DNA of 64,000 nt from Bacillota bacterium. Lineage in GTDB: Bacteria > Bacillota > Clostridia > Christensenellales > SZUA-584. Below are positions 6,689 through 37,456 of the stretch, piece by piece; position 1 is the stretch's first letter, and each line of letters begins with the position of its first letter. Both the position numbers and the translations under genes were made by a program. Location: NCBI GenBank assembly GCA_023412005.1, contig JAEYOE010000033.1, positions 23,344-87,343 of the forward strand. Reading direction: 5' to 3'. The notes under the pieces were generated by a model. It made no database searches, had not been told where the DNA came from, and was given only the letters and a program-made list of their open reading frames with translations.

Positions 6689-6701
6689 GCGTTTTGTCCC
6701 C

Positions 6702-8609: not shown

Positions 8610-8625
8610 CTTTTCCTCCCAAGAA

Positions 8626-9555: not shown

Positions 9556-9875
9556 CGATCTTTCCTTATCGCGATTGACAACATAGTATCAAACCGTTTT
9601 TTAGTTTACTAATGTTAATTATTACAATTCACTTTATTGCTAAACCATTTTTCAGTCTTGAAACACAATTCATAATGGTTATTAATACCACTTTATTATT
9701 TTGTGACTATATGGTAAAATTAGCACACTTAATTAGTAATGATTTGGTCATGAAATCATTGTATCTATTTTAGGTATAACAATCAAGACATTTTCTGATT
9801 ATCTTTTCGGTCGTTGGCTTTAGAAAAGCCAATACTGGTTATGATAGTCGGTAAGTGATATAAGGAGGAATGCAA

Positions 9876-10982: not shown

Positions 10983-11063
10983 TTCGTTTAAAATCTAGAT
11001 AATAATCCGCGAATAATCCCTCCGGCCTCGTGCCGGATGGATTATTTTGCGCTAAGAGGTCGT

Positions 11064-20174: not shown

Positions 20175-20221
20175 TTTTTCACGTAATCCCTGCAAGATAA
20201 CTAATAAAGGAGACCTTCGCT

Positions 20222-20902: not shown

Positions 20903-20923
20903 GAATCTGCCACATACAAAGAG

Positions 20924-20951
20924 GAGCCGCTACACCAGCGGCTTCTTTTTG
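20924..20951 (+). terminator. Intrinsic terminator after the AIM24-family gene
   Basis: GCCGCT-acacc-AGCGGC followed by TTCTTTTT. Confidence 0.7.
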
Positions 20952-20952
20952 T

Positions 20953-20979
20953 AAAAAAAAGCGCCGTGTGAACAGCGCC
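20953..20979 (-). terminator. Minus-strand intrinsic terminator with no recognisable gene upstream
   Basis: Minus strand reads GCGCTG-ttcaca-CGGCGC followed by TTTTTTTT, back-to-back with the plus-strand terminator. Confidence 0.6.
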
Positions 20980-21294
20980 AAAGTTATATTTATATTGATG
21001 ATGCTTATTGGTTTTGTGTGCCGGTAACGGATGCCGACACGGATGTGCCATAACCTGCTCCCGCGTACACGTTGTCGCTCGGCCAATTCACCGCAGCACT
21101 GTAGGTCTTTTCCTATGCGTCCGTCGCGAGATTTTGACTGTAATGCAATGATAGCATAGCATTGTCTGCTATTCAAATTATATATACTATCAATTCTGGT
21201 ATATGAATACAGGCAAGGATGCGTATCTGCCATGTCGCGGCAGCATTTGCAGCGTGTTGCCATCACATCCATAAAATACATGGCAGTTCCGCAA

Positions 21295-21330
21295 GGTAAA
21301 CAAAGAGGACAGCCTTTTGGCCGTCCTCTT
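21295..21330 (-). terminator. Intrinsic terminator after the 47-aa ORF
   Basis: Minus strand reads AAGAGGACGGCC-aaaa-GGCTGTCCTCTT followed by TGTTT. Confidence 0.7.
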
Positions 21331-21342
21331 GTTTCCCAGTTC

Positions 21343-21486
21343 TCATCCGTCATGCGGATCGTCTTCCCCGCTGTAATGCACACGCAAGTCTTCCCTTAAG
21401 CCTATCTGGTGGTCCGTCCCGTCGTTTGCATTTGTCCGCGAAGAAAATTGATCCAGCATTCTTCTGGGATCCTTCTTTTTTTTCAT
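21343..21486 (-). CDS. Small hydrophilic hypothetical protein, 47 aa
   Basis: MKKKKDPRRMLDQFSSRTNANDGTDHQIGLREDLRVHYSGEDDPHDG. GAGGA RBS lies 8 nt upstream of the ATG (21484-21486). It has its own terminator and no recognisable family. Confidence 0.45.
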   Translation of the reverse strand: MKKKKDPRRMLDQFSSRTNANDGTDHQIGLREDLRVHYSGEDDPHDG

Positions 21487-21523
21487 TTTTATTATCCTCG
21501 TCTTTATTATGCTCAGTTCATAA

Positions 21524-21557
21524 TAAAAAAAAGCGGGTGCTCGCATGAACTCCCGCT
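21524..21557 (-). terminator. Intrinsic terminator after the giant surface-protein gene
   Basis: Minus strand reads AGCGGGAGTTCATGCGAGCACCCGCT followed by TTTTTTTT, 16 nt past the stop. Confidence 0.75.
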
Positions 21558-21572
21558 GAAAATGGTTCTTTT

Positions 21573-24500
21573 TTATTCCCAGCTTTCAATCGCCGCTGTA
21601 AAGCTGTCCCTCGCGTCATCAGGTATCACTGCGCTGAAAACCTCTTTGCCGTCCAGTGTGACGGTGAGTTTTTTTCTTCTCATACGGCGTGTCAGTCCGT
21701 CAGACAGTGTAATCCTTCCATCCGTGCTGTCCTTAATATCTGCGCGTTTCAAAGCGATCGTGAGCACATCGCGGCTGCGTCTGAGCCTTCTGATGACAAC
21801 AGCCTTTCTGGCTCGCCCGCTGCTTTGGCTGACCAGCGCTTCTATTTTCACATTACGCCACAGCAGCAGCAGGAATATCAGCAGCAGCCCAAGAGCCGTG
21901 CCGCCGCCCGCATAGGCATACCAGGGCAGCTCAGGCCTTGGCAGCCGCTGACCAAACGCGATATCTTCATCGGTAATGGTCACCTCTACGAGACGAACGT
22001 TGCCGTTTCCATCCATCACCTCAATCAGATAGGTGCCCGGCTTTATGTCTTCAAGCACGAGCGAATCCTGCCATTCGCCGTCCGGCAGCCTGATTTTTAC
22101 AGCATCCTTCACCACGTCCGTGGCGCTGACGCTCACATCGCCCGATACGGGCTCAGGTGTCTGTGTGGGCGCCGCAAAGGTCTCTTCCTCCGGTCCGGGT
22201 GCCCCCGTCTCCTTCTCGGCTATCTTAAACGGCCCGAACGTTTTGTTTGCCGTTAACCCAAACGCGTTTTTCGCATACGCATGGATGTAATACGTGCCGG
22301 GCTTGCTGATGAGAATATCGCTCTTATAGCTCTGGTAAGCGCCGGAGAACGTTTTTGACTCTGTCAGTGCGTAACCCTTGCCAACAATTTCCGACATATC
22401 ATCGGTAAACTTCAGCGATGCTTTGATATCCGTCAGCGTTGTTTCGCCGATGACGTAGCTGCCTGTGCTGCATTCTATAGCGGGCGGCGTTTCGTCAAGG
22501 CTATCTACCGTTACATTAAATTTGGTGCTGTTCCCAACGTTGTCCACAATCGTCATCGCGTAAACGTCATTCTTATCCGCAGTCCACGTCAGATCCGAAG
22601 ACGCTTTTTTTTGTGTGCCGTCCGGCATGATCAAATGGCTGTTGCCGCTGCCGCCCGGGTCAGCCGCGAGCGTGAACTTAAGCTGCGCTTTGTTGCCCGA
22701 TACCGTGACCTCTGTCTTGGGCATTACAGGCGCCATCTTATCGATTTTTATCAAATAACCGCCGAATTCGCCCACATTACCAAACTCATCAGCGGCCTGA
22801 ATAAACACGCTGTGAACACCGCTGACCACCGTTTTGCCCGATTCCGCAGCAAAGAGCTTATCCTCAGTCGCATATTTGAATGAAACCGTCGGCGCGTCTT
22901 CAACGGACACAGCCGTTACTGTCACGCTTTGGTTAGTCCATGTTCCTGCCGTATACGGTTTGCCGTCCGCTTTTGTCATCTTCACAACAATATTGACGGG
23001 AACGTTCTTATCAACCACCAGCTTGCCGGAGTAACCGTAACCGCTGGTGAACTCATCATCAGACGCGTTAACCCTGAACTGCAGGTTGGTGATGCTGGTT
23101 AACCCGAAAGGCAGTTTAAAGTCGTACGCCGTTTCATCGAGCCCCGTTTCAATCACGTTCCACGTTGCCCCATCAAAGTACTCAAGCGTATACGTCAGCG
23201 GGTCGCCGTCTATATCGTACCCGGTCCAAGTCACGTTCACCGTAGATTCGCCGCCGTAGCGCGAACCCTGAACGGGCGTATGCACCACCGGCACCGCAGG
23301 CGGGTCGTTCACGCTGTTAACGGCGACCGTGACCGTCGCGCTGTCTGTGCCGCCATGGCCGTCCGACATCAGATAGGTGAAGCTGTCGTCGCCCGCGAAT
23401 TGGTCAGCCGGTGTGTACGCCACCTTATTGTCTTTCATCTCTGCTTTGCCATGAGACGGTGCCCCGACGCTCGTCACCTTAAAGTCGTTTGTGGAATATA
23501 TCTGCCCGCTGTTGAGCCCGCCTTGTGTATCAACGTCCGTATCGTTTGCCAGCACGTTGATAACCACCATATCCTCGTCGTTCGTCACTGCCGTGTCGTC
23601 GTTCGCGATCGGTGCGTCGTTCACCTGCCGTATGGTCACCGTCACCAGCGCCTTATCCGCAGTGTCTCCGTCCGATAGCTTGTACTCAAAGCTGTCCGTG
23701 CCGTTGAAATTGGCCGTCGGCGTATATTTCACCTGGTTGCCGTCCAGCTCGGCTGTGCCGTGCGCCGGCAATTTCAGGCCGGTGTCTCCCAGCGAGAGCG
23801 TTAATGTCTCGTCCTCGGGATGCGCATTCAGCTCTGTTTTCGTGTCCTGATCCGTATCGTTCAAAAGCGCGCTGATCCAAACCGGCTGATCTTCGTTGGT
23901 TTGTGCACTGTCATCAACAGCATCCGGCGCGTCGTTCACCTGCGCCACCGTGACGGTCACAACGCCCGTATCCGATGCGTTTGAAGGGTCTTTAACCGTA
24001 TACGTGAAGCTGTCGGTGCCGTTCCAGTCTTTGTTCGGGGTATACCGGATATCCGTGCCGTTCACGCTTACCGTTCCGTGCGCGGGCCGTCCGGTTGTTT
24101 CCACCGTCACTGTCAGGCTGTCGCCGTCCACATCATGAATCAGCGACCCGACAGGCACATCCACCGCCGTGTCTTCATTTGTGGAAGCGGTGGTGTCAGC
24201 CGCTGTGGGCGCATCGTTTACAGGCTTTACCGTGATGGTGATCGTCCCCGTATCCGTTGTATCGGCAATATCGCTGACTGTGTAATCAATCGACACGGTG
24301 CCATGGTAGTTTGCGTCAGGCGTGTAGGTCACGTCTCCGTCTTTATCAGTGCTGATTGTTCCATGCATCGCGCCAACATCTCCGAGCAAACCGTCCAGTT
24401 CAAGCACGTCGCCAATATCCTGATCCGTATCGTTACCGAGTACATTGAAGGTGATCGGTGTCTCTTCGTTTGTCTCCACGACATCATCCACAGCCTTCGG

Positions 24501-27500
24501 TGCATCATTTTCGCTGTCCACCACAATGGTCAGAGTGCTCGACGCACTGCCGCCATGACCGTCGGTCATTGTATAATCGATATAAACGGCACCCGCGAAA
24601 CCCGCATCCGGGTCGTATGTGATTACGCCGCCGGATTCGGAAAGCGTGCCGTAGCCGGTTCCGTAAAACGCATAGCTTTGCACCGCAAAAGTGCTCCTGT
24701 AGTGCAGATCCGCAAGGTTATTATCCGCATCCGTATCCACGTCCGTATCGTTGGCAAGCACATCGAAGCTGACGATTGTATCCTCCGCCGTCAGCGTGCT
24801 GTCGGGCTTGGCCACCGGGTTGTCATTCACCTGCGACACGTTCACCGTCACCTTGCCCTTGTCGGTCAAAACGCCGTCACTCACGTAATACTCAAACGCA
24901 TCCGGGCCGTTAAAGTTGTTATTCGGCGTATAGAGTATTTTGTTATCCTCTATAGACAGTGTTCCGTGCGCGGGTGCCAGCAGACCGCCACCGCTTAAAG
25001 ACACCGACAGCACTTCGGTAACAGGCGTTGCGTTCAGCGTGCTGTCCCTATCCACATCGTTGTCGTTAAACAGCACATCTATTTGTGTTGGTGTGTCCTC
25101 GGTAACGGCGATATCCAAATCGTCGCTGGCCACAGGCGCATCGTTCACCTGATCAACCGTCACTGTGATTTCGCCTTTGTCGAAATCACCGATAGCATCC
25201 GTCACTGTATATTTGAATGTCACGACACCGTTCCAGTCGGTCGCCGGTGTGTAGGCCATCTGTTTACCCGCAACCGATACCGTACCGACAGCCGGTTTAT
25301 CATCGTTGGCAACCGTCACTGTCAGCGTCTCCCCCGGGTCGGTGGCTAAGTCTGCGTCGCTGATCAGCGAGCTTACATCAATCAACACCGGTGTCTGTTC
25401 GTTCGTGGTAACAGTTGTATCATCCGCAATCGGCTTATCATTCACCGACGTGACGGTTACGTCGAACTCAAAGGGTGTCACGTTCGTCGCGTGATCGGCA
25501 TCCTCCACAACCAGCCGTATGGCAATGGGCCCGCCATGCTGATGATCTTTGGGCTTAACGGTCACGGTGCGTTCGCCGCCGCTCCCTTTTGTAATGCTCA
25601 CATCACTTGTCCCTACTAATGAAGCATCTTCTGTGCTGGCCACCTGTACGTTCAGGTTTTCGGCAGCTGTTTCCTCATCGGATACGGCAAACGTAAACGA
25701 ATTGCTTCCGTCCTCCGCTATTGTTAAATCTTGCGGGTCTGTATCAAACACAGGCGGGTCGTTCACGGCGCTGACGGTTATTGTCACCGTCGACGTGGCC
25801 TCCAAGCCGTACCCGTCATTCATCGTGTAAGATATCACAACATCGCCGTACCAATTTTCAGACGGTGCGGTGTAATGCAGCTTGTTATCCACAACGCTGA
25901 CAGTGCCGTGCGTTTCACCTATGAAATGCACGTCTCCTTCGTCCGTGGATATCGCAAACGAAGCCTTGCTATGCGGCACCGCATTGAGCGCTGCATCCGT
26001 ATCAACATCCGTGTCGTTTAAGAGCACGTCAATATCAACGACGGCGCTCTCATTAACGATTGCCGTATCCGCATACGCTATCGGCTCGTCGTTCACCTGA
26101 TCAATCGTGACGTTAACGGTGCCCTTCACGGGCGCTGCCTCACCGTCGCTGACGTAATAATCAAATGAAACACTGCCGTTGAAATCCGGATCGGGGTTAA
26201 ACTGAATGTCGTTTCCGACAATGATCGCAGTACCCTTCGCGCCCGCATGATTCACAACGCTCGAAATTGACAGCGATTCATCCTCCGGATGTTTATTGAG
26301 ATCGGGGTCCTTGTCGACATCCTCGTCGTTGCTCAGCACGGTAAGCGTCAATGAACCGTCTTCATTCATCGTCACATCTTCGCCCGTCACCACCGGCTTG
26401 TCATTCACCTGCGATATGTGCATTGTTATCGTCGCGGTCGCGGTTGCGTTGAACATATCCTTCACGGTGTAGGTAAAGCTGTCGTCACCATTGAAGTTTG
26501 CCGTCGGCGTATAGAGTAGATTATTGCCGCTCAATGTTGCCGTACCGTGAGACGGTGCTGAAACATTTGATATGCTTAAAGCATCGCCGTTTGTCGCAAT
26601 GTCCACATCAGCGGTCAGTGCCGTCCAGTCAATCGCGAAATTTTTGGTGTCCTCATCGATTGTTTTTTCCGCACCGCTTGCTGTCGGCGCATCGTTCACC
26701 GGGCTCACTGTCACAACGAACTCACAGTCAGCCGTGCCGCCATCGCTGTCTGTCACACGCAGCCGCACGGTTGTACCGGCCGTGTCGTTTTGATTGTTTT
26801 TGGGATTCACAATCACGCTTCTGCTGCCGCCGCTTCCTGAGAATGTCACATCGCTTGTGCTCGCAAGTGTTCCGTTGGACGTAGAGATCACCTGCACCGT
26901 TAAAGACGCGGCGGACGTTTCTACGTCACTCACCGCAAACTCGCTTTCGCCGTTGTCCCCGTCTTCTGTCAGCTCCATATCGGCGGGAACAGAAATAACC
27001 GGCAGGTCGTTCACGCTGTTAACCGTTACATTCACCACGCCTGAACCGCTTCCGCCGTGGCCGTCCAAAACCGTATAGTTTATTTGGTTATTGTCATGGT
27101 TGTTGGCGGCCGGGGTATATGTCAATGTCTTGCCGCCATCCGTGATTGCCACCGAGCCGTATTCGGTATGGGCCACGGTTGCCGCCGATATCGTAAATGT
27201 CGTTTTGGAATTCGGCGAAGCATTCAGGCCGCTTTGCGTATCCACGTCCGTGTCGTTCGCGAGCGGATCGATCACCAGCGGCGTATCCTCATCCGTCGAC
27301 ACATTATCCGTGACTGCCACGGGGTTGTCATTCACCTGCGCCACAGATACCGTAATCTGCGCGGTGCTCGATACACCCGTCACGTCTTTAATTGTGTACG
27401 AGAAGGTCTCGGTGCCGTTGAAATCCGTCTTCGGCGTGTATCGTATGGTTGTGTAGCCGCTGCCATCGCTTTGAATAGCGGCTGTGCCGTTTGTCGGCGT

Positions 27501-30500
27501 CGCCACAGCGGTGATCTTGAGCTTCTCCGCTGTCGGATTCGCGTTGAGCGCTGCATTCGTATCAACGTCCGTATCGTTGGCAAGCGCGTCAATCTCGATC
27601 CACTGTTCCTCGTCGGTGTTAATGCCGGTATCGTTATTGGCCACCGGCGCATCGTTCACCTGTTTCACCGTCACCGTCACTGTAGAACTGCTCGTTACAC
27701 CAGCAATATCTTTAATCGTATAATCGAAGATGATCGGGCCGCCGTTAAAATTGGGTTTGGGCGTCACATTAATGCCTTTTTTATCGTCGGTCACACTCAC
27801 AATCAGGTTCTCGTTGCTGCATGTTGCCGATACCACAAACAGCTCGTCCGAGCCGGTCAGCAAATCGGGGTCTTTATCGTTGGTGAGTACGGTTAATTTT
27901 GTGGTGGCATCTTCATTCACATCAAATGCATCGGCGACTGCTGTCGGCGCTTCGTTCACACTGTTGACCACAAATTTAAATTTTGTGGACGATGCAAGCG
28001 CCCCGTCACTAACTGTCAGTGTGATGAATGTGGAGCCGTTCCATGCGCCGTTGGGCAACACATCAATCGTTCTGTTCGCCCCCGTACCTCCAAGCACCAT
28101 GCCGGTAGGCAGCACCAGCACCGGGTTGCTGCCCTTCTTGGTCAGCGTCAGTGAGCCCTCATCAGTGTCAACATCTGATATTGTAAATTGAATACCGGTT
28201 TTTGATTCCGTCTCATTGACGGTATAGACCGGCATTGTCGCGTCGTCAAGCGGGTCTGCGTTGCTGTCGTCTACCAGATGAATCACCGGCGCGTCGTTCA
28301 CGGGTGTGACGTTAACGGTAACCTTATAACTGAATGTTTCGTTGGTATTATTGTCCTGCATTGTGTATTCGAATGTATCAGTGTCCGTTCTGTCCTGTCC
28401 AGTTACATAGTTAATTGACTTCCCGTCAGCGGCAATCGTCGCCGTACCATGCACAGGATTCGTTTTTATAAGAATCACGCTGTCCTTGCTGGGGTCGGAT
28501 TTAAAGTCAACATCATCGTTATCAAGCACATTGAGCTGTGTTGGCACATCCTCTGAGACCGTAAAAGTATCATCTCCGTCTGCCACCGGTTCGTCGTTTA
28601 CCGAGTTGACAGTGATATGGAATGTTCTTGTCGCGGTTTTAACCGGCGAGCCTGAATCCGTGACGGTCAGCGTAATATCCGCTTCGCCATAGCCGTTGAG
28701 CACCGGTGTGGCTTTCACCGTTCTTGCGCCATTGCCGGTTAACGGGTTGGTAATCACAATTCTTTCATTCGGAAATAGTTCGGGGTTGGAGCAAGAGAAA
28801 TTGACATCGAGCCCGTCTTTGCTGTCTTCTTCGTCGCTCACTGTGAAAGCGATTTCCCCTGTGTCATGATCCTCATCAATCTCCAAATTACTGATGGCTG
28901 TCATCGTCGGCGCATCGTTATCAGGCGTCACCGTCACGGTCACCGTCGCCGTTGATGAGCCTTCGCTGTCCACAGCCTTGTAAGTGAATGTCACCTTAAT
29001 ATCGGTCTTCTCCGGCATGTTGCTGTCCGGCGTGTACTTTATTTTGTTTCTGCCCGCATCCGTGACAACTTCAACAGTGCCTCTGTTTGGGGACAGCGCG
29101 CTGACGTTTTCAATATGCAGCGAGGCATCACCCTCGTTTTGCAGGTCAACGTCATCGTTGGCCAATACATCTATTAAGACATATTCGTCTGTTTCCTTAA
29201 CAGTAGCGCTGTCGTTAACGGCAACCGGAACGTCATTAACCGGCTTCACCGTCAGCGTAAACGTATCGCTTGCGGTGAGTGTGCCGTCCGACACCGTCAC
29301 GGTGATCAGCGATGTGCCGAATTTATTGTCGTAGGGTTCCAGTGTAAACGTGCGTACGCCATCTTCGCCGCCGGGTGTTGCATTGTTGTTGTTATTCACT
29401 GCCACTGCCGGAAGCAGCGCCGTGTTGCCGCGCGTCACCGTTACGGCCAAATTGCTGTCGGGATAATCCACGTCACTGACCGTGACGGTCAGTGTGCCGG
29501 TGGCGCCGTCCTCATTAATCTCAATATCATCTAGGTTGGTAATCGTCGGCGTATCGTTGACGGGTTTCACCGTAACATTGACAGTAAACACGGCCGTTTC
29601 GAGGCTCTTATCAACAGCGGTATACGTGAACAAATCGGAGCCGAAATAATTTGCGTCCGGCGTGTAGATGATTGTTTTATTGTCTGCCTTGAGCGTTGCC
29701 GTGCCGTTCCCAGGGTCGCTGACAGAATCAGGCACCACAGTCACATCTTCGTCGTCCGGATTGGTCGATTCGTCAATATCGTCGTTGGCGGTCACGAGTA
29801 TCTCCAATGCCGTATCTTCATCCGTTGATACCGTATCGTTTCCGCCGGACGGCGCGTCGTTAACGGGTGTCACTGTTACCGTTACCGTCGCCGCGCTTGT
29901 TTTATCCTCGCTGTCTTTAATCCAGTAGGTAAAGCTGTCGGTTCCGTTCCAGTTCGCATCCGGTTTGTATTTAATCTTATCCGGCTGCCCAGTTTCCTTC
30001 ACGCGTGACAGTGTGCCGTGAGACACACCGGAGAAAGACGTGATGGTCAGCATATCGCCATCCATAATGTCGAGCTCAATATCGTTGGCCAATACGTCGA
30101 TATCCGTTTCTCCGTCTTCGGCGATGGTCGCCGAATCGTCGACTGCTGTCGGGTTATCGTTCACGGGCAGCACCGTGACTGTAACGGTGCCCGTCGATGT
30201 GCCGTTTACCAGCTCGCCGTCGCTCACCTGTATGTTAAAGCTGTCTGTTCCCGTGTAGTCGGCAGACGGCGTATACGTGAACGAACCGTCGGGGCTGACC
30301 GACACTGTGCCGTGTGCGGGATCTGTCGATTTTGAGAATGTCAGCGTTGACGAATCGATATCTGTTGCTGTGACGCTGCTGCTCACCGCCATGTCTTCAT
30401 TCGTCGTCACGGCTTTCGGCGCCATCACCGGCGCATCGTTAACGGCATTCACGGTGATTTCATAGTCGGCGGTTGCGTGCTTATCCCCATCGGTCACATC

Positions 30501-33500
30501 AAAATGCACCCACATTGAGCCGTGCACATCGTCTTCCGGGGTAACGGTTAACAGCTTGCGGTCAGACAAGCTGGACAGCTTAATGCCCTCTGTTTTCAGC
30601 ATGTTTGTCGTTTCTGATGTAATCGTAATGATCAGCTTGCTGGTGTCTGTCGTTTCCGGGTCGCTGACAACAAAGCTGAACGATTCGCTTTTGTCCTCGT
30701 CCATAACCCAAGCGATATCCGGGTATTTGCTGATGGCCGGCGGGTCATTCTCGGGGCTGATCTCCACCGTTACCGTTGCGGTATCGGTGCCGCCGTGGCC
30801 GTCACCGACAGTGTATGTGAATGTATCTGTGCCGTAGAAGTTTAGCGCAGGCGTGTAATCCACACTCTTTTTGTCGCCGCTGATGACAGCCGTTGCCCCT
30901 TCCGAGGACGCAGTGCTTAAAACGATCAGTGCGTCGCCGTCAATATCGCTGTCGTTGGTCAGTACTGTCACGTTAACCGTTGTATCTTCTGTGGTTGCTG
31001 CCGTGTCGTTTCTCGCCAGCGGTTCGTCGTTGGCCGCAATTACAGTGACCGTGACGGTACCGGTGGCTGTCGCACCGTTTTTGTCCATGACGGTATATGT
31101 GAATGTATCCTCACCGTTAAAGTCACCCTGAACGCTGTACTCCAGTGTGCCGTTATGTTTGTTCTGCACCCGGCCCGTTGCAGGAACCGATACAGATGAA
31201 ATCGTCGGCACATGGTCTTCCACGTCGCTGATGCTGCCAGACAGGTCGACCAGCACGCTCGTTGTGCCCGGCGTGCCAGTCACGCCAGAATTCTCCGTGA
31301 CCTCCACCGATTTATCATTGGCAACCGGCGCATCGTTCACCGGCACCACCAAAAGCCGGAACTCCGCTTCGGCCGTCTGCTTATCGTCGCCGTCTCTGCC
31401 ATCCACAGCCGCGATGTTAATATATGTGATACCGGATTCATTGGAGACAGGATTGAGCGAAATCTCCATTTTATATTCGCCCGTTTCAGCATTTTTCTCC
31501 ACGCATTGCAGCGATATGCCACTGCTCTGCACCACGCCCGTGTTGCTCGAGATGATGGTGTAAAGCACGGTATCGCTCATGTCATCATCCAAATTGGTCA
31601 CGGTGTAAGGCACCTTTATCAGCGTGTCTTCGTTCGTGGTATTGTAGTAAGCAAGGCCCGAAATGCTCAAGGGATCGTTCACCGGCAGCACTTTAAACGT
31701 GATGGTCTGCGAGCTGCTGAGAGCCGCTTCCGTTACATCTGTTACCGTGTAACTCACTGTATCTGTACCGTTCCAGTTCGGGTCGGGCGTGTACGTGACG
31801 ATGCCGGTCGCTTCATCAAAAGCCGCTTCACCGTGGGCTGGCTGGGTCATCTCCACCGTCAGCGCCGTGCCGCCGTCCACGTCCGTGTTCGGTGTAATCA
31901 CCGCAACGGCTGCCGACGTGTCTTCATAGAGCGTTCGCGTGATCTCTTCGAGCACCGGCGCGTCGTCCAGCGCATTCACCGTCACATAGATCACATGAAA
32001 ATCCTGCGTTATTCCGTCGCTGACACCAAGCAGCAGCTTGACCGTACCGTTGGCGTTGGCATACAGCGGTTCGGCTGTTACCCTCGCGCTGCCCAGCCCC
32101 GTTGATATTGCGGTAACTTTGAGATCGAGCGCAACCGGTGCGGCTGTAATTGGATCATACGTATAGGTATAAAACTTGAGAACATCTTCTGTATCCGCAT
32201 CGCTGAACGTCACATCGAACGTGACGCCCTCCGAATCCTCATCGAACGTTTCCGCTGTGTTGACATCGTTTGTGATGGCCGCTCCGTGTACCGTTTCGAT
32301 AACGGGCGGATCGTTAACGGCATGAACCGACATGATGATATTTGCCGAAGCTTTTTCAACACCGTTTTTACCGTCGGAATCGCCGTCTGTCCCGTCTTTC
32401 TGCTCTGTCACCGTATACTTAATGGGCACTTCCTCACCGTTCATATTGGGCGCAGGTGTAAACACCCAGTTTGGCCCGCTGCCCGTGAAAGTACCGAGAG
32501 TCGTTGGCGCGATTGTCACCGATACCGGAACACCGTTGGGATTGCTGTATGGTAATGTTATATTGACACTGGCTCCGTCTTCTGTGGTTTCCTTATATAT
32601 GTCATGGCAGTATACCGTACTCTGAAATTCGATGCCGATATAAACGGTGGCCGTATCCGTTCCGCCGTTACCGTCGGATACCGTATACGTAAAGCTGTCG
32701 GCTCCGTTTGCTTCAAGAGATGTCCCTGAGCGCGTGTAGCGAATCTTGTTGCTTTCTATGCTCACGGTACCGTGACTCGGATCCGTCTTGCTTATGACTG
32801 TCAGCACATCATTTTCAACGTCATTATCGTTACCGAGAACATTGATCAACGCCGTTTCCTCTCCGGTGTTGTTCGGCAATTCGCAATAATCCGTCCAGGC
32901 CACGGGCGCATCGTTCACAGAATTCACAATAATGGTCAGTTGGGCTGTCGCGGTGTCCTTGCCGTCTGTTACCGTATACGTCAGGTTCTCGGTGCCAAAC
33001 CGATTCCGGTATGGCGTGTATGAATACGTGTCACCCGTTTTTTTAATTTGGCCGAATACCGGCGTGCTGACGGTGCTGACCCAAATGGTATCACTCTCAA
33101 CATCCGAATCGTTTGAGAGCAAATTAAGATCGGTAATGGAGGTATCTTCATCCACCGTGAACGTATCATCAACAGCTTTAGGCGCGTCGTTAACCGACAT
33201 GACGGTGAGTGTGAAGCTGCGCGTCTCATATAAGCCGGTATCGTCTTCGGCCCTGATTGTTATTATTGCCTCACCATACTTATCATCTGATGGCACCAGC
33301 ACCAGCGAGTATGTGCCGTCTTCATGATCCGTCAGCTTAATATGGTCGCTGTCATTATCAAGCAGCGTGGTGTTGTTAGACGTTGCTGTTACCGTTAGGG
33401 TGTTCTCCGTGTCCTGATCCGTCACGGAAAAATTGATGGTTCCCGACGGGTTGTCTTCATATATATAGAGATTGGCAATTGCGCTGATGACAGGCGGATA

Positions 33501-36500
33501 CTTTGCGTCTTCAATGTGCATGGTGACCGTGCCCGTATCGGAAAGCTTGCCGTCCGACACAACATAGTCAAAATACTTGGTGCCTGTTTCTCCGTTCGCC
33601 GCAGTGTATGTGAAGTAATGCCCGTTATAAACAAGCGTACCCGCATAATTGCCGGTGATGCCCGTCATACCGGTGGTCAGTATGTCGCCGTCCACATCGA
33701 TGTCGTTCGCCAGTACATCAATTCTCTGCGTACCCGATACCGGCACATACGCGGTGTCATCCACAGCCACCGGTTTATCGTTCACTTCGTTGATCGTGAA
33801 CACAAACGACTTATCCGTAAGCTCCATACCGTCACTGACCGATACATGAATGGCAACAATGCCGTTCGCGTCGGCTTCCGGAGTAATCAACAGAGCGTAA
33901 TAGCTCTCTTTCTCCACGATATCGATACCCGATGTCTTTACCTTTGTCAGATCGGCGCTCCACGCGGAAATGACCAGATCTTCCGTCGGCGTTAAATCAT
34001 CCGAAACAGTAAACTTGATTTCTCCGCTCGGCGTATCTTCATCGGTTGTCGCCGCGGATGTATCAGTAAACGTCAGTGTCGGTGCTTTGTTCAGCGCGTT
34101 CATAATGATGTTGCAGGTTCCTGCCACGCGGTCTGTGCCGTCTGTCACGTAATAGGTGAAGCTTGTGTTTTCTATCACAGAGCCCGGTGTAAAGCGCAGC
34201 GTTGTGGCATCGACTATCTCAACCGTGCCGTGATCAGCCTCCGGCTGCTCGATGCCGTCAAACGTCGGCTTGCCGTTTTCAATATCCGAGTCGTTGTCCA
34301 GCAGGTGGGCAATGCTGATGCTCAGCTCGTTGTAGCGTTCGTCGAAGTAAACCGTATCCTGACCGGCAATCGGCAGATCGTTCACGCCTGTCACATAGAG
34401 CGTAAACGTTTTTGTTTCCGTGTTAAAGCCGTCACCAAGCGACAGCGTCACGTTGGTCTGACCGAATTTGTTGGCCTTGGGCGTTATGCTGATTTTTACC
34501 GCCGGGTTATTATCTCCAAGCCCGGTGATCACAATATCCTTGGAAGCCAGCAGTGCCTCGTTTGAAGACACCGCCTGCAGCATCAGGCTGTCCGGCGGCG
34601 TTTCGTTAGCCACGTCATAAATCTCAAATGGAATCTCAAAGTTTTTATCGTCTTCGTTGATCGTATAGTCAGCCGCCACGTTCTTGAACCACGGCGGGTC
34701 AATCACAGGTTTAATCGTCACTGTGACTGTGCCGGTGCTGGTGCGACCGCTGCTGTCCTGCATCGTGTACTGAAACGTATCCTGTCCGTAGGCGTTTTCA
34801 TTCGGTGTGTAGGTCACTGTGCCGTGCTCAGCATCAACCTCAGTTGTCCCCTTGGCGCCGTTGGTGGCCGATACGAGCGTTTGGGTATCCCCCGTGTCCG
34901 GGTCGGTATCGTTAGCCAGCACATTAATCACAACGGCAGTGTCCTCGTTGGTCGATGCCGTGTCCGCAACGGCCACGGGGTCGTCGTTCACGGGTGTAAC
35001 GGTCACTAATACCTTGGCCGTATCCGTGCCGCCATGGCCGTCGGATACCGTGTAGGTGAAGCTGTCGTCGCCGCTGTAATTGGCTGCCGGAACATATTTG
35101 ATCGTGTCTGCCACAACGGTGGTTGAGCCGTGAGCCGGTGTGCCGGGGCTGAGTATTGAAAGAGCATCCATATCCACATCGCTGTCGTTTTCGAGCACAC
35201 TGATGCGAATGCTGCCGTCTTCCACCACCGTGTATGCCGGATAATTTTCTTCGTCGCTTTCATCCGGATCATCCGCCGCCACCGGCGCGTCGTTGACAGC
35301 GTTAACCGTCACATTGAATGTGTCCACAACCGTACCGCCGTTTAAGTCTTTCACCGTCACCGTGATGGTCACCGGTGTCTCGGAATACAAATTGGCTGCC
35401 GGTGTTATCGACAGCGATGTTTCTGTGCTGCTCTGATTCACGGTCACTTGCGGAATCAATGTGGTGTCAGACGACTGAGTCGTCACAACCAGTTTATCTG
35501 TCGGCGTCTCCTGATCGCTGACATTCAGCGTCACCGTTTTTGTGGTATCTTCATTCATTGTGAAGCTGACGATATCAACAAGCGACGGCGCCGTATTCAG
35601 ATCGCACTCCCTCACCGCCGTGTTGCCCGCGTTATCGCTCGCATACACCGTGTAAGTGCCGCCGACCGAAACCTCGAATTTGCCGCCGGTAAATGTTGTG
35701 CCATTATCCGCGAAATACGCCGCGTCATGGCTGCCCACCGCGTATTTGGTCACAGCGATTCCGCTTAAGCCTTCATCGTTAATAGCAGCCGTCACCGCAC
35801 ATTTGCCGCTGGAAACAACACTGCTGATTTCATTGATTGAAGGCGACAGTTTGTCGATGGATATGGAGTCCGTGTAGGCGGAAGATATATTGCCGGCCCG
35901 GTCAGCCACAGCCACGTTCAAATCATATTGTCCGCTCTCTGATACAGTCAGGCCTTCAGCAGGAGCCTCCTGCCAGCTGTCTTCATTGTGCAGCTTATAG
36001 GCATAGTATTCGGGTGCGCCGGTGCTCGCCCCCAAAGCGGGCAAATTCACCGTCACGTCTGTGTTTGTCCAGTCGTCATGCGACAGCGTAATGCCGCTGG
36101 GTGCCGACGGCGTATGTGTATCAATGTTCGTGATGTTAATCGTCTGATGTTCGGATTCATGGCCCGCGTAGTCTTTCGCGTAAACCTCCATCGAGGTGTT
36201 CGCCTCCACATCCAATACCTTGAGAGACGACGTGAATTTTTCACCGTTGATGTAAATGCCTTCAAGGCCGCTGTCATCATCCGAGGCAGATACGCTCACC
36301 CGAAGCGGCAGCACATTCGTCCAGTCAGTGGCGTAATCAACATTGCATGCAGGCGCATGCGAATCGTTTATTTTGAGGCTGATGTTACTGAAGGAAGCTG
36401 TGTCGGTGCCGTTTGGATTATTGTTGACCAAGCGGATAATCAGCGAGCGCGTGCCGACAGGAATGGAGACAGTTTTGGAAATCTTCTCCGTGGGATTGTT

Positions 36501-36941
36501 TAAATCGGATTTTCTGATTTCTGTTCTGCTGATCATGCTGTCGTAATCAGCCGTGCAGAATTCTATGACGGCGTACGGCTCGTCAGCGGTGTCGGTAACG
36601 GCGGTATCCGCTGAGAAGCTGATCTCGAGCGTTCCCAAATCAACCGATGTGGAAATATCGTGCCCCGCTTCATTCAGCGCAACAAAGCCCATTGCCACGC
36701 CTTCCGCGGAGGTACCCATTTTTAGTGTTGACCCCTCCCAGGAAAGCCCGGAGGAAATTGCAAATGTGCCACCCTCTCCCGTGACAACGTTTTCATTATT
36801 GTAGCCTCTAAAATAGTAAGGACTCGCGCCGTAGGCCACGTCGTTAAGCCCCACCAGCTGAACGACCATGGCCATGCTTAAAGCGACAGCGATAATCCGT
36901 ATGATGCTTTGTCCTATTTTCGATTTCATGAATGCTTTCAC
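21573..36941 (-). CDS. Giant (5,122-aa) C-terminally membrane-anchored surface protein with ~40 tandem cadherin-like/'tandem-95'-type repeats
   Basis: Uninterrupted 15.4-kb ORF. The N-terminal signal peptide is MKAFMKSKIGQSIIRIIAVALSMAMVVQLVGLNDVAYG. Ig-like modules sit at both ends and the ~100-aa units are joined by V-N-D-x-P linkers. An FN3-like module is present. The TM helix YAYAGGGTALGLLLIFLLLLW is followed by a 94-aa basic tail. Confidence 0.95.
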   Translation of the reverse strand: MKAFMKSKIGQSIIRIIAVALSMAMVVQLVGLNDVAYGASPYYFRGYNNENVVTGEGGTFAISSGLSWEGSTLKMGTSAEGVAMGFVALNEAGHDISTSVDLGTLEISFSADTAVTDTADEPYAVIEFCTADYDSMISRTEIRKSDLNNPTEKISKTVSIPVGTRSLIIRLVNNNPNGTDTASFSNISLKINDSHAPACNVDYATDWTNVLPLRVSVSASDDDSGLEGIYINGEKFTSSLKVLDVEANTSMEVYAKDYAGHESEHQTINITNIDTHTPSAPSGITLSHDDWTNTDVTVNLPALGASTGAPEYYAYKLHNEDSWQEAPAEGLTVSESGQYDLNVAVADRAGNISSAYTDSISIDKLSPSINEISSVVSSGKCAVTAAINDEGLSGIAVTKYAVGSHDAAYFADNGTTFTGGKFEVSVGGTYTVYASDNAGNTAVRECDLNTAPSLVDIVSFTMNEDTTKTVTLNVSDQETPTDKLVVTTQSSDTTLIPQVTVNQSSTETSLSITPAANLYSETPVTITVTVKDLNGGTVVDTFNVTVNAVNDAPVAADDPDESDEENYPAYTVVEDGSIRISVLENDSDVDMDALSILSPGTPAHGSTTVVADTIKYVPAANYSGDDSFTYTVSDGHGGTDTAKVLVTVTPVNDDPVAVADTASTNEDTAVVINVLANDTDPDTGDTQTLVSATNGAKGTTEVDAEHGTVTYTPNENAYGQDTFQYTMQDSSGRTSTGTVTVTIKPVIDPPWFKNVAADYTINEDDKNFEIPFEIYDVANETPPDSLMLQAVSSNEALLASKDIVITGLGDNNPAVKISITPKANKFGQTNVTLSLGDGFNTETKTFTLYVTGVNDLPIAGQDTVYFDERYNELSISIAHLLDNDSDIENGKPTFDGIEQPEADHGTVEIVDATTLRFTPGSVIENTSFTYYVTDGTDRVAGTCNIIMNALNKAPTLTFTDTSAATTDEDTPSGEIKFTVSDDLTPTEDLVISAWSADLTKVKTSGIDIVEKESYYALLITPEADANGIVAIHVSVSDGMELTDKSFVFTINEVNDKPVAVDDTAYVPVSGTQRIDVLANDIDVDGDILTTGMTGITGNYAGTLVYNGHYFTYTAANGETGTKYFDYVVSDGKLSDTGTVTMHIEDAKYPPVISAIANLYIYEDNPSGTINFSVTDQDTENTLTVTATSNNTTLLDNDSDHIKLTDHEDGTYSLVLVPSDDKYGEAIITIRAEDDTGLYETRSFTLTVMSVNDAPKAVDDTFTVDEDTSITDLNLLSNDSDVESDTIWVSTVSTPVFGQIKKTGDTYSYTPYRNRFGTENLTYTVTDGKDTATAQLTIIVNSVNDAPVAWTDYCELPNNTGEETALINVLGNDNDVENDVLTVISKTDPSHGTVSIESNKIRYTRSGTSLEANGADSFTYTVSDGNGGTDTATVYIGIEFQSTVYCHDIYKETTEDGASVNITLPYSNPNGVPVSVTIAPTTLGTFTGSGPNWVFTPAPNMNGEEVPIKYTVTEQKDGTDGDSDGKNGVEKASANIIMSVHAVNDPPVIETVHGAAITNDVNTAETFDEDSEGVTFDVTFSDADTEDVLKFYTYTYDPITAAPVALDLKVTAISTGLGSARVTAEPLYANANGTVKLLLGVSDGITQDFHVIYVTVNALDDAPVLEEITRTLYEDTSAAVAVITPNTDVDGGTALTVEMTQPAHGEAAFDEATGIVTYTPDPNWNGTDTVSYTVTDVTEAALSSSQTITFKVLPVNDPLSISGLAYYNTTNEDTLIKVPYTVTNLDDDMSDTVLYTIISSNTGVVQSSGISLQCVEKNAETGEYKMEISLNPVSNESGITYINIAAVDGRDGDDKQTAEAEFRLLVVPVNDAPVANDKSVEVTENSGVTGTPGTTSVLVDLSGSISDVEDHVPTISSVSVPATGRVQNKHNGTLEYSVQGDFNGEDTFTYTVMDKNGATATGTVTVTVIAANDEPLARNDTAATTEDTTVNVTVLTNDSDIDGDALIVLSTASSEGATAVISGDKKSVDYTPALNFYGTDTFTYTVGDGHGGTDTATVTVEISPENDPPAISKYPDIAWVMDEDKSESFSFVVSDPETTDTSKLIITITSETTNMLKTEGIKLSSLSDRKLLTVTPEDDVHGSMWVHFDVTDGDKHATADYEITVNAVNDAPVMAPKAVTTNEDMAVSSSVTATDIDSSTLTFSKSTDPAHGTVSVSPDGSFTYTPSADYTGTDSFNIQVSDGELVNGTSTGTVTVTVLPVNDNPTAVDDSATIAEDGETDIDVLANDIELDIMDGDMLTITSFSGVSHGTLSRVKETGQPDKIKYKPDANWNGTDSFTYWIKDSEDKTSAATVTVTVTPVNDAPSGGNDTVSTDEDTALEILVTANDDIDESTNPDDEDVTVVPDSVSDPGNGTATLKADNKTIIYTPDANYFGSDLFTYTAVDKSLETAVFTVNVTVKPVNDTPTITNLDDIEINEDGATGTLTVTVSDVDYPDSNLAVTVTRGNTALLPAVAVNNNNNATPGGEDGVRTFTLEPYDNKFGTSLITVTVSDGTLTASDTFTLTVKPVNDVPVAVNDSATVKETDEYVLIDVLANDDVDLQNEGDASLHIENVSALSPNRGTVEVVTDAGRNKIKYTPDSNMPEKTDIKVTFTYKAVDSEGSSTATVTVTVTPDNDAPTMTAISNLEIDEDHDTGEIAFTVSDEEDSKDGLDVNFSCSNPELFPNERIVITNPLTGNGARTVKATPVLNGYGEADITLTVTDSGSPVKTATRTFHITVNSVNDEPVADGDDTFTVSEDVPTQLNVLDNDDVDFKSDPSKDSVILIKTNPVHGTATIAADGKSINYVTGQDRTDTDTFEYTMQDNNTNETFSYKVTVNVTPVNDAPVIHLVDDSNADPLDDATMPVYTVNETESKTGIQFTISDVDTDEGSLTLTKKGSNPVLVLPTGMVLGGTGANRTIDVLPNGAWNGSTFITLTVSDGALASSTKFKFVVNSVNEAPTAVADAFDVNEDATTKLTVLTNDKDPDLLTGSDELFVVSATCSNENLIVSVTDDKKGINVTPKPNFNGGPIIFDYTIKDIAGVTSSSTVTVTVKQVNDAPVANNDTGINTDEEQWIEIDALANDTDVDTNAALNANPTAEKLKITAVATPTNGTAAIQSDGSGYTTIRYTPKTDFNGTETFSYTIKDVTGVSSTAQITVSVAQVNDNPVAVTDNVSTDEDTPLVIDPLANDTDVDTQSGLNASPNSKTTFTISAATVAHTEYGSVAITDGGKTLTYTPAANNHDNNQINYTVLDGHGGSGSGVVNVTVNSVNDLPVISVPADMELTEDGDNGESEFAVSDVETSAASLTVQVISTSNGTLASTSDVTFSGSGGSRSVIVNPKNNQNDTAGTTVRLRVTDSDGGTADCEFVVTVSPVNDAPTASGAEKTIDEDTKNFAIDWTALTADVDIATNGDALSISNVSAPSHGTATLSGNNLLYTPTANFNGDDSFTYTVKDMFNATATATITMHISQVNDKPVVTGEDVTMNEDGSLTLTVLSNDEDVDKDPDLNKHPEDESLSISSVVNHAGAKGTAIIVGNDIQFNPDPDFNGSVSFDYYVSDGEAAPVKGTVNVTIDQVNDEPIAYADTAIVNESAVVDIDVLLNDTDVDTDAALNAVPHSKASFAISTDEGDVHFIGETHGTVSVVDNKLHYTAPSENWYGDVVISYTMNDGYGLEATSTVTITVSAVNDPPVFDTDPQDLTIAEDGSNSFTFAVSDEETAAENLNVQVASTEDASLVGTSDVSITKGSGGERTVTVKPKDHQHGGPIAIRLVVEDADHATNVTPFEFDVTVTSVNDKPIADDTTVTTNEQTPVLIDVSSLISDADLATDPGETLTVTVANDDKPAVGTVSVAGKQMAYTPATDWNGVVTFKYTVTDAIGDFDKGEITVTVDQVNDAPVASDDLDIAVTEDTPTQIDVLFNDNDVDRDSTLNATPVTEVLSVSLSGGGLLAPAHGTLSIEDNKILYTPNNNFNGPDAFEYYVSDGVLTDKGKVTVNVSQVNDNPVAKPDSTLTAEDTIVSFDVLANDTDVDTDADNNLADLHYRSTFAVQSYAFYGTGYGTLSESGGVITYDPDAGFAGAVYIDYTMTDGHGGSASSTLTIVVDSENDAPKAVDDVVETNEETPITFNVLGNDTDQDIGDVLELDGLLGDVGAMHGTISTDKDGDVTYTPDANYHGTVSIDYTVSDIADTTDTGTITITVKPVNDAPTAADTTASTNEDTAVDVPVGSLIHDVDGDSLTVTVETTGRPAHGTVSVNGTDIRYTPNKDWNGTDSFTYTVKDPSNASDTGVVTVTVAQVNDAPDAVDDSAQTNEDQPVWISALLNDTDQDTKTELNAHPEDETLTLSLGDTGLKLPAHGTAELDGNQVKYTPTANFNGTDSFEYKLSDGDTADKALVTVTIRQVNDAPIANDDTAVTNDEDMVVINVLANDTDVDTQGGLNSGQIYSTNDFKVTSVGAPSHGKAEMKDNKVAYTPADQFAGDDSFTYLMSDGHGGTDSATVTVAVNSVNDPPAVPVVHTPVQGSRYGGESTVNVTWTGYDIDGDPLTYTLEYFDGATWNVIETGLDETAYDFKLPFGLTSITNLQFRVNASDDEFTSGYGYSGKLVVDKNVPVNIVVKMTKADGKPYTAGTWTNQSVTVTAVSVEDAPTVSFKYATEDKLFAAESGKTVVSGVHSVFIQAADEFGNVGEFGGYLIKIDKMAPVMPKTEVTVSGNKAQLKFTLAADPGGSGNSHLIMPDGTQKKASSDLTWTADKNDVYAMTIVDNVGNSTKFNVTVDSLDETPPAIECSTGSYVIGETTLTDIKASLKFTDDMSEIVGKGYALTESKTFSGAYQSYKSDILISKPGTYYIHAYAKNAFGLTANKTFGPFKIAEKETGAPGPEEETFAAPTQTPEPVSGDVSVSATDVVKDAVKIRLPDGEWQDSLVLEDIKPGTYLIEVMDGNGNVRLVEVTITDEDIAFGQRLPRPELPWYAYAGGGTALGLLLIFLLLLWRNVKIEALVSQSSGRARKAVVIRRLRRSRDVLTIALKRADIKDSTDGRITLSDGLTRRMRRKKLTVTLDGKEVFSAVIPDDARDSFTAAIESWE
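23303..35297 (-). repeat. Coding tandem-repeat array (~40 units of ~95-115 aa) inside the giant gene
   Basis: I counted by eye 36 V-N-D-[ADKLPENTV]-P boundaries plus 4 degenerate ones (VIDPP, LNKAP, DAKYPP, EFQS). The first is at ~35289-35297 and the last at ~23303-23311. The plus strand shows the recurring reverse-complement GCRTCGTTCAC. Confidence 0.9.
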
Positions 36942-37141
36942 AGTTGCTCCCCCAAATTAACGCATGTTCCGGTAATTTTCAGTTAATATCAGAATAATAT
37001 TGTCGTATTTTGTCACTAATACAGATATATATAGACGGATATACGCAAACCGAATCAATTGGCATTCCGTGTTCTAAAAATTATTTTTAAATCATCCAAT
37101 ATGTTTTTATATTCAGCTTCGCGAATTTTTTCCATAACGTG

Positions 37142-37170
37142 TTGACATTCCGCCACATGTTGCATATAAT
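37142..37170 (+). promoter_or_regulatory. Sigma-A-type promoter of the trp operon leader
   Basis: TTGACA (37142-37147), 17-nt spacer, TATAAT (37165-37170). Confidence 0.75.
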
Positions 37171-37171
37171 A

Positions 37172-37456
37172 ACAAACAACAGTAAACCTTTGAGCAAGAA
37201 AAGTAAGAAAACTCGGGTGTACACAGAGAGCCGCCGGTGGTGTGAGTGCGGCAGCACAGAATTTTCCGAATGGCCTTGCGAGGGCAGCTTGAAACCGCTT
37301 AATGCGCGAGTAGACGCTGACGGGAGTCCCCTTCCGTTACCATAGGGGTGCATATGATGGTATGCAAAGAGGCGGATGATTCAATTCATCAATTTGGGTG
37401 GTACCGCAGAAGCTTACGGCTTTTGTCCCTTACAGGGGGCAAAGGCTTTTTTTGTT
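37172..37456 (+). promoter_or_regulatory. T-box riboswitch leader (tRNA-Trp-responsive candidate)
   Basis: Conserved T-box sequence AATTTGGGTGGTACCGCA at 37391-37408. AGAGAG and GGTGGTGTGAG stem-I elements lie at about 37225-37250, and GAA-TGG (37268-37273) is the candidate specifier. The terminator stem ~37418-37446 is followed by TTTTTTT, and trpE lies directly downstream. Confidence 0.85.

Follow-up and report, generated by a model that had tools for sequence, protein, structure and literature searches.

The giant gene at positions 21573-36941 (reverse strand) of the 64,000-nucleotide stretch of DNA analyzed here (the window: positions 23,344 to 87,343 of contig JAEYOE010000033.1, assembly GCA_023412005.1) probably encodes a giant fibrillar, adhesin-like surface protein that is anchored in the membrane by its C-terminal end and belongs to a monoderm, Clostridia-like Bacillota bacterium. 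The bulk of the 5,122-amino-acid product is a stalk of 40 tandem repeat units, and this stalk, and with it the adhesin-like fiber as such, is of an ordinary, known kind, because giant extracellular proteins with Big_9, Cadherin_4 and Cadherin_5 domains already are a recognized class, most numerous in Planctomycetota (PMC11573180). Modest novelty lies in three elements: a tip domain that lacks annotation, two subtypes of repeat units whose 'grammar' is conserved, and an unannotated anchor, consisting of a transmembrane helix and a cytoplasmic domain, that is shared with other surface proteins; otherwise, this would be one more giant Big_9 protein from uncultured bacteria.

The giant gene and its product

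The features of the gene and its product, approximately in the order of translation, are as follows.

36947..36953 (-): Shine-Dalgarno-like GGGGGAG, read from the upstream sequence, 5 nucleotides (nt) 5' of the GTG start
21573..36941 (-): giant open reading frame (ORF), a single open frame of 5,122 codons with a GTG start
36828..36941 (-), amino acids (aa) 1-38: predicted signal peptide with a K-rich n-region, a core at aa 9-35 and an A-Y-G|A-S cleavage-type motif (hydropathy scan)
36342..36827 (-), aa ~39-200: N-terminal domain, family-specific, a predicted all-beta sandwich and candidate distal tip or ligand-binding domain
35598..36341 (-), aa ~201-448: three immunoglobulin (Ig)-like modules (strands in the AlphaFold2 (AF2) model; predicted local distance difference test (pLDDT) scores 75-94)
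23313..35597 (-), aa 449-4543: array of 40 tandem units of ~100 aa with VNDxP linkers (Pfam, NCBIfam, unit map and hidden Markov model (HMM) classes)
23007..23312 (-), aa 4544-4645: fibronectin type III (FN3)-like module, a beta-sandwich in AF2 (pLDDT 75-92) with FN3 tandems as Foldseek matches; Pfam fn3 at E 0.12
22212..23006 (-), aa ~4646-4910: three further predicted Ig-like beta-sandwich modules (AF2, the first with low confidence), kept in 10 homologues
22149..22211 (-), aa ~4911-4931: Pro/Glu-rich linker, read from the sequence, pLDDT <50, of varying length among homologues
21966..22148 (-), aa ~4932-4992: predicted small membrane-proximal beta domain with a PGTYxIEVxDxxGN hairpin motif (AF2 pLDDT 82-85)
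21852..21923 (-), aa ~5007-5030: predicted single transmembrane (TM) helix (hydropathy; AF2 helix at model residues 464-485), in all homologues
21576..21851 (-), aa 5031-5122: predicted basic cytoplasmic tail domain (18-tail alignment), always at the extreme C-terminus
21303..21330 (-): terminator-like hairpin with a 12-bp stem, ~245 nt 3' of the stop codon (consensus scan, a pattern match only)

The giant gene is real and intact. The frame runs uninterrupted, with the coordinates, length and start codon that the preliminary description of this DNA had read from the sequence, and the single-ORF surface protein of 5,122 aa proposed there is borne out by the intact frame, the GTG start and the GGGGGAG ribosome-binding site. 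The first in-frame ATG is codon 5, located 17 nt from GGGGGAG, and the N-termini of the homologues are equal in length to the GTG-started N-terminus. The GC content of the gene is close to that of the adjoining genes. The product has a mass of 542 kDa and a pI of 4.05 and is rich in Thr, Asp and Val, with 805 D/E versus 265 K/R residues and a net charge of about -540. A hydropathy scan detects only two hydrophobic segments in the entire chain (aa 9-35 and aa 5008-5037), which, together with the basic tail, agree with the previously proposed signal peptide, TM helix and cytoplasmic tail and fit a type I surface protein; the AxG/AxA motif of the signal peptide, followed by S or G, is kept in 6 homologues.

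Conservation of the gene and integrity of the assembly

Two assemblies from one other sample contain a strain with 98.3% nucleotide identity over 11.2 kb (window positions 19695-30902), in which the ORF is open as well. Comparison with this strain over 3,109 aligned codons gives a dN/dS of 0.19 and zero indels, and the giant gene evolves under purifying selection. Colinear orthologues with 72% identity over 2,360-3,900 readable aa are present in three GTDB species representatives ('Bacillota bacterium' metagenome-assembled genomes); the adjoining housekeeping genes tested against these three species show 78-91% identity, with partial synteny of the gene block. An exhaustive search yielded, in addition, a representative protein that is 88.5% identical to aa 1018-5122. 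More distantly, three full-length homologues (5,075, 4,625 and 4,663 aa) share both end modules, are colinear with the giant protein and show 42-45% identity. One full-length homologue lies inside a 1.08-Mb contig and adjoins bofA and yabP, which indicates, because these are sporulation genes, that the host of this homologue is a spore-forming monoderm.

Repeat arrays are prone to mis-assembly, and most of the database homologues are contig-end fragments, so we had to consider that the giant frame is an assembly artefact or a decaying pseudogene with a fortuitous long ORF. This is very unlikely, to the point of being negligible, because the ORF is intact in both assemblies of the 98.3% strain, in the three 72% orthologues and in the homologues of 4.6-5.1 thousand aa, including the one inside the 1.08-Mb contig, and because the dN/dS is 0.19; moreover, the gene contains no DNA repeat longer than 21 nt that could cause a collapse. 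The assembly of the array, about which the preliminary description had been cautious, is thus corroborated by the open frame in independent assemblies and by the full length of the distant homologues.

The repeat array and its two unit types

When cut at the VNDxP-type linkers, the array resolves into contiguous units of 92-116 aa each (n=40, aa 449-4543), in agreement with the approximately 40 linker-joined units of ~100 aa counted in the preliminary description. Class-specific HMMs, derived from the giant protein's own units, assign 27 units to class A and 12 to class B and leave one degenerate unit (aa 1440-1541); because of this derivation, the A/B separation within this protein is partly circular. 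Of the earlier estimate of about 28 A and about 12 B units, therefore, the B count stands, and the A count becomes 27 plus the degenerate unit. The order of the units is BAABABABAAaBABAABAAABABABAAABAAABAAAAAAA.

The consensus of the 27 A units is VNDAPVA..D.....ED....I.VL.ND.DVD......L.......P.HGT.........YTP..N..G.D.F.YTV.DG...T.T.TVTVTV, with the signature ED..ND.D.D..HGT..YTP..G.D.F.Y.V.DG, and that of the 12 B units is VNDPP.I....D.T..ED.......FTVSD..T....L.VT..SSN..L....G.......P..N..G....ITL.V.DG..T....F..TVN, in which the ND.D.D (DxD) cluster is missing. Scanned against Pfam as two halves, the protein matches Big_9 (PF17963; 728.5 and 811.5 bits, cut-off 23.6) in 31 stretches, and the Cadherin_4 and Cadherin_5 models overlap the Big_9 regions; against NCBIfam, 38 stretches match tandem-95 (NF012211; 733.3 and 733.0 bits, cut-off 90). 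A single marginal stretch, which overlaps a tandem-95 unit, matches VCBS (TIGR01965; 20.1 bits, cut-off 15.5, E 5.4e-4), and the NCBIfam scan also gives weak matches to the CshA repeat. The eukaryotic cadherin family PF00028 is not among the families reported in the Pfam scans, in which only the bacterial models Cadherin_3, Cadherin_4 and Cadherin_5 appear. By these comparisons, the A units can be classified as canonical tandem-95/Big_9/Cadherin_4/Cadherin_5 domains, and their earlier description as cadherin-like or tandem-95 repeats holds, with scores far above the Pfam and NCBIfam cut-offs; for the VCBS type named there, one stretch passes the cut-off, marginally.

The alignment and the class HMMs also support the earlier notion that the B units are a separable class lacking the DxD cluster, and yet they are divergent homologues of the A units. 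When B units alone are compared with Big_9, 2 of 8 score above the cut-off, 5 of 8 score below it and 1 of 8 has no match. Because of these weak matches and because a profile-profile comparison of A and B (hhalign) aligns 90 columns with a probability of 96.7% and an E value of 4.7e-10, the B units are a divergent subtype of the A-unit domain rather than a second fold. Among solved structures, the A-unit profile matches the 'RTX protein' 36gk_A (E 1.7e-12), the C-terminal domain of an endofucoidanase and the 'Cadherin domain protein' 9y9w; the B-unit profile has no significant match to solved structures, and single-sequence searches of the PDB with the repeat region and both termini gave no match.

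Age and stability of the array

The preliminary description had noted that the units share only short identical stretches of DNA, and this is indeed the case: the 15-mer TGTCATTCACCTGCG occurs 3 times in the ORF, exact direct repeats in the 15.4 kb reach 21 nt at most, and Tandem Repeats Finder reports no array with a period of ~300 nt in the ORF. The repeat families that are detectable in the DNA have 60-88% identity over 30-110 nt and are centered on the linker codons. At the protein level, the mean identity is 40% for pairs of A units (maximum 57%) and 33% for pairs of B units. The A/B order in the 5,075-aa homologue, despite an identity of 45%, is the same as that in the giant protein, and the two homologues of ~4,650 aa differ from it only by the loss of one BAAA block. 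Because the order is kept across such a distance, with the loss of one block in the others, the array is old and has been inherited unit by unit, without homogenization. The claim that it is old and recombinationally stable is, accordingly, strongly supported by the divergence of the units, the colinearity of the 72% relatives and the shared A/B order. The giant protein offers a clean natural case of a very long array that is kept unit by unit, not homogenized, and such an array should be useful for studying how the length and composition of a stalk are selected.

The N-terminal region

The N-terminal domain, for which the preliminary description had given ~170 aa and an unrecognized fold, measures ~160 aa and contains 34 columns that are invariant across 7 homologues; sequence and profile searches with it gave no Pfam match and no PDB sequence match. 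For aa 35-449, the AF2 model, which was built from an alignment of 4 sequences and has a pLDDT of 78.6, predicts an all-beta domain at aa ~64-195, with about 9 strands at a pLDDT of ~80, followed by three Ig-like modules (aa ~200-448), not the approximately four that had been proposed to precede the first B unit. Sub-threshold matches in this Ig-like region are to an OmpL47-type domain (aa 215-271) and to Big_13 (aa 274-363). In Foldseek, the matches to the whole model are all multi-domain chains, among them Eph ectodomains, SraP, SiiE and GhpA, a result that would be compatible with a jelly-roll head on Ig/FN3 modules and does not prove it.

The C-terminal region and a portable, putative anchor element

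The model of aa 4544-5122 has a pLDDT of 73.9, and both terminal models derive from shallow alignments of 4-10 sequences. Taken as a whole, the C-terminal model matches only generic multi-Ig/FN3 chains in Foldseek. AF2 and hydropathy agree with the previously described series of additional Ig-like modules, Pro/Glu linker, TM helix and tail. The FN3-like module that had been placed before them holds at the level of the predicted fold (AF2, Foldseek) but not by sequence, where the Pfam fn3 match is only at E 0.12.

The 92-aa tail, with a pI of 10.8 and 21 K/R against 13 D/E residues, is beta-rich in the AF2 model (~86 aa at pLDDT 55-82), and 18 aligned tails give the consensus NV.V.V.G....G.EK.LRT.RRLKRRKDEV.V.L...H.RGG..G.V.L.K.LTRRMRG..L.V...G..VL...IP.DA.G.F.A.I..W. 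From the positive-inside rule combined with the N-terminal signal peptide, we infer that the tail lies in the cytoplasm. Pfam, NCBIfam and the PDB sequences offer no meaningful match to any of the 18 tails, and a profile search of the PDB with the tail returned nothing below E 0.015. PilZ was considered and rejected as the identity of the tail: most tails contain an RxxxR-like basic run, but there is no DxSxxG, and 0 of 18 tails match PilZ at E values up to 10. A bacterial PH-like domain was rejected as well, the one match to bPH_10 (E 0.12, in 1 of 18 tails) not being meaningful. Anchoring by LPXTG and sortase, by type I secretion system (T1SS)/RTX elements, or by SLH, dockerin or cohesin domains likewise was discarded since Pfam, NCBIfam and motif scans revealed no such motif or domain; in particular, there is no LPXTG-like motif near the C-terminus, such strings being found only at aa 856 and 1463.

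When 1.84 billion representative proteins were searched with a profile of the last 190 aa, 2,073 matches were obtained. These were not accepted as one large family, given that most cover the same few profile positions repeatedly and over a short length, and that the 3 multi-stretch ones checked are SprB-repeat proteins; the hairpin motif of the membrane-proximal domain by itself matches such proteins, and the GxYxxxVxDxxGN hairpin is most likely all that the majority of the 2,073 have in common. The TM helix and the tail together are present in ~39 of the best 150 of the 2,073 matches, and in these 39 proteins, the complete tail matches end no more than 6 residues from the C-terminus. The carriers include the giant family and four checked proteins of 246-1,007 aa with ectodomains of Listeria-Bacteroides (Flg_new) repeats, namely, P0073, P0075, P0087 and P0101 (L007 661-3684); one Flg_new-repeat carrier belongs to NCBI assembly GCA_054606615.1. 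A word-indexed search with the tail profile returned 11 fragments only. Thus, the TM helix with the tail is a portable, unannotated C-terminal element. A profile search of the six-frame translation of the window found no second copy of this element, the giant ORF being the only match. The window encodes a second large surface-type protein (54338-57460, reverse strand; 1,040 aa) with LRR_4, a Listeria-Bacteroides (Flg_new) repeat, an SprB-like motif and three Big_2 domains; by the same search, it does not carry the TM-plus-tail element.

Relationship to known surface proteins

By the repeat-family tests, the giant protein can be assigned to the tandem-95/Big_9 class and, by its architecture, it is fibrillar-adhesin-like. 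It shares with other tandem-95/Big_9 giants the same repeat domain in tandem and a size above 5,000 aa but differs in the Clostridia-like Bacillota host, the two conserved unit subtypes in fixed order, the unannotated N-terminal domain, and the TM helix with a cytoplasmic tail and no known sorting signal. The RTX/T1SS adhesins of Gram-negative bacteria (LapA, MpIBP, SiiE, BapA, BapP), with their Ca2+-rigidified BIg extender regions, likewise have beta-sandwich units of ~100 aa strung into a long stalk, with acidic motifs at the junctions, and the similarity extends to the match of the A-unit profile to a solved 'RTX protein' and to the Foldseek match to SiiE. The extenders of the MpIBP type are near-identical at the DNA level, whereas the units described here are only ~40% identical. 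Furthermore, unlike these adhesins, the giant protein has an N-terminal Sec signal and the reverse polarity, with the anchor at the C-terminus and the tip N-terminal; it shows no T1SS signal and no RTX nonapeptide repeats, neither half of it matching HemolysinCabind, its C-terminus consists of the TM helix and the basic domain, and no ABC transporter, membrane-fusion or TolC-type genes of such a system are linked to it in the window or in the homologue loci L006 and L008. A point of similarity is that BapP, a Ca2+-dependent biofilm adhesin, contains Big_9 repeats (PMC12153261).

In the sortase-anchored adhesins (CshA, SraP, SasG and the Cna-type MSCRAMMs), a signal peptide is likewise followed by a non-repeat region, then by a repetitive stalk and, at the C-terminus, by the anchor (PMC8286594), and the weak CshA-repeat matches and the Foldseek match to the SraP binding region point in the same direction. 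In contrast to these proteins, the giant protein has no C-terminal LPXTG-like motif, and where they carry a short charged tail, it has a TM helix followed by ~90 aa that form a conserved domain. Ebh and Embp, the staphylococcal giants of 0.5-1 MDa, are similarly exported by Sec and stay attached through a membrane-spanning segment at the C-terminus, the cytoplasmic part of which is positively charged; the stalk of Ebh, however, is alpha-helical (FIVAR/GA/DUF1542), and none of these domains appears in the Pfam scans of the giant protein. Classical eukaryotic cadherins also combine tandem beta-sandwich units carrying E, DxD and xNDxP-type motifs with a single-pass TM helix and a conserved cytoplasmic domain but have 5-34 units versus the 40 here, and PF00028 has no match, so that this likeness would amount to analogy or very distant homology only. 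The giant protein probably works in the manner of the RTX, LPXTG and cadherin stalks although it lacks the features that define those classes.

Proposed function and alternatives

If the adhesin-like reading is correct, the signal peptide would direct Sec export, and the C-terminal helix would serve as the stop-transfer anchor, leaving, by topology rules, the basic folded tail of ~90 aa inside and ~5,000 residues outside. The ectodomain would be a chain of ~48 beta-sandwich modules, with the 40 diverged Big_9/tandem-95 units as its core. In cadherins, Ca2+ is bound by E, DxD and DxNDNxP motifs, and the calcium junction sites of RTX-adhesin extenders were reportedly described by Vance et al. 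in 2020 (cited in PMC12153261). Because the acidic ED, ND.D.D and VNDxP motifs of the units resemble these ligands and junction sites, the most likely arrangement, by analogy, is that of a stalk stiffened by Ca and presenting the N-terminal domain, with Ca2+ at or near the domain junctions, in line with the pI of 4.05. Given that Ig and cadherin domains measure ~4-4.5 nm per module, the ~48 modules would form, if extended, a stiffened rod of ~0.2 µm that would hold the N-terminal beta-sandwich domain off the wall for the binding of a ligand or a partner cell. More speculatively, the 12 B units, which lack DxD and occupy fixed positions, probably form junctions that are Ca-poor, more flexible or functionally distinct.

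Gram-positive fibrillar adhesins usually have the tip N-terminal and the anchor C-terminal, and with respect to the definition of such adhesins (PMC8286594), the stalk is represented by the 40 Big_9-type units and ~7 Ig/FN3-like modules; in the place of the distal adhesive domain, there is the conserved N-terminal beta-sandwich, which matches no Pfam family or PDB sequence; and the attachment to the surface would be provided by the predicted C-terminal TM helix, with no known anchor domain or motif. Several considerations weigh against an adhesin. The protein is known here from its sequence alone, Ca2+ binding is read from motifs, and the envelope type of the organism is itself deduced. Furthermore, the term 'adhesin' rests on architecture because the N-terminal domain matches no known adhesive domain in the Pfam and PDB sequence searches, and the terminal AF2 models are moderate (pLDDT 74-79, alignments of 4-10 sequences). 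Finally, some giant Gram-positive surface proteins are anti-adhesive shields, not adhesins (PMC6548404).

The last point leads to an alternative that we consider unlikely, namely, that a dense brush of acidic rods of ~0.2 µm is a steric shield or spacer that distances cells, phages or surfaces, or masks shorter adhesins. The extreme length, the net charge of about -540 and the tip without a recognizable adhesive domain would suit such a role, and Ebh, too, is attached through a membrane-spanning C-terminal segment whose cytoplasmic part is charged. There is, moreover, the precedent of size-dependent inhibition of clumping by the giant S. aureus proteins Ebh, SraP and SasG (PMC6548404). However, the N-terminal domain, with its 34 invariant columns, is among the more conserved parts of the protein, for which the end of a passive spacer would have less need, and the fixed A/B order across homologues with 45% identity favors a position-specific function over bulk. 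Another doubtful possibility is that the stalks or tips mediate homophilic, Ca2+-dependent adhesion between cells, building aggregates or granules as eukaryotic cadherins do. An E near the start of the unit, the DxD cluster and a VNDxP linker resembling DxNDNxP, along with the formally classical cadherin layout of a single-pass TM helix combined with a conserved domain in the cytoplasm, are what one would expect in this case, but PF00028 has no match in the Pfam scans, and bacterial Big_9 stalks are generally viewed as extenders (PMC12153261). It is distinctly improbable that the protein is released by proteolysis near the Pro/Glu linker to become a matrix or biofilm scaffold, the TM helix and the tail being part of a transient export intermediate: a disordered linker of variable length just outside the membrane-proximal domain would be a suitable site, but the ~90-aa tail is conserved, always C-terminal and common to other surface proteins, which would be odd for a discarded remnant, and no protease gene is linked in the window.

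Conceivably, but with little probability, the TM-plus-tail element may be an undescribed portable anchoring or coupling module of Clostridia-like bacteria that, beyond membrane retention, docks surface proteins to a cytoplasmic partner, while the A/B order encodes stiff and hinge junctions. If so, the docking, comparable to that of cadherin tails to catenins, could serve localization, load-bearing, or control from the inside out or the outside in, and the A/B order would amount to a defined pattern of stiff Ca-bound and hinge-like junctions. About half of the predicted fibrillar-adhesin-like proteins have no recognizable anchor (PMC8286594), and the TM-plus-tail element is a concrete candidate for one missing type of anchor in Gram-positive anaerobes.

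Genomic surroundings

The giant gene appears to be monocistronic and is surrounded, in the window, by AIM24, DeoR, the genes of a sugar ABC uptake system and the trp operon. On the 5' side, it shares a divergent intergenic region with the T-box-controlled trp operon. A T-box leader (Rfam RF00230; 99.9 bits, gathering score 93) is located at 37181-37433 (+), upstream of trpE-G-D-C-F-B-A, and a 12/12 match to a sigma-70 promoter (TTGACA, 17 nt, TATAAT; 37142-37170 (+)) lies directly 5' of the T-box within the divergent intergenic region. The listed start of trpE, a GTG at 37398, falls inside the T-box, and the true start is, for this reason, probably further downstream.

On the 3' side, the ~670 nt between AIM24 and the stop codon of the giant gene (20903-21572) hold no convincing gene. 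Two ORFs considered as downstream partners (20880-21383 and 21343-21546, reverse strand), although called as genes in another assembly, have Cys/Arg-rich, non-protein-like translations without a Pfam match and were treated as non-coding; the genes called in this interval in other assemblies are of 157 aa and 67 aa. Genes for secretion, sortase, glycosylation or protease functions are not linked to the giant gene in the window or in the homologue loci L006 and L008, and T1SS, sortase and accessory-Sec genes are absent beside it in every locus with annotated flanks or called genes. The tRNA-Ser(GCT) gene of the window (49564-49657 (+)) has no mobile-element features noticed beside it. The segment 12150-21572 contains the sugar ABC transporter, the DeoR regulator, an ABC ATPase, an ORF of 223 aa (19503-20174 (+), between the ABC ATPase and AIM24, with no Pfam match) and AIM24. 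A block of five genes at 5714-12149 includes those for a 635-aa protein, whose homologue in locus L008 carries Pyr_redox_2, and for a 324-aa protein, whose L008 homologue is a polyprenyl synthase. This block directly follows the giant gene in two related species (compared: loci L003, L005 and L008) but is ~9.4 kb away from it in the window, which suggests an insertion or rearrangement between the two.

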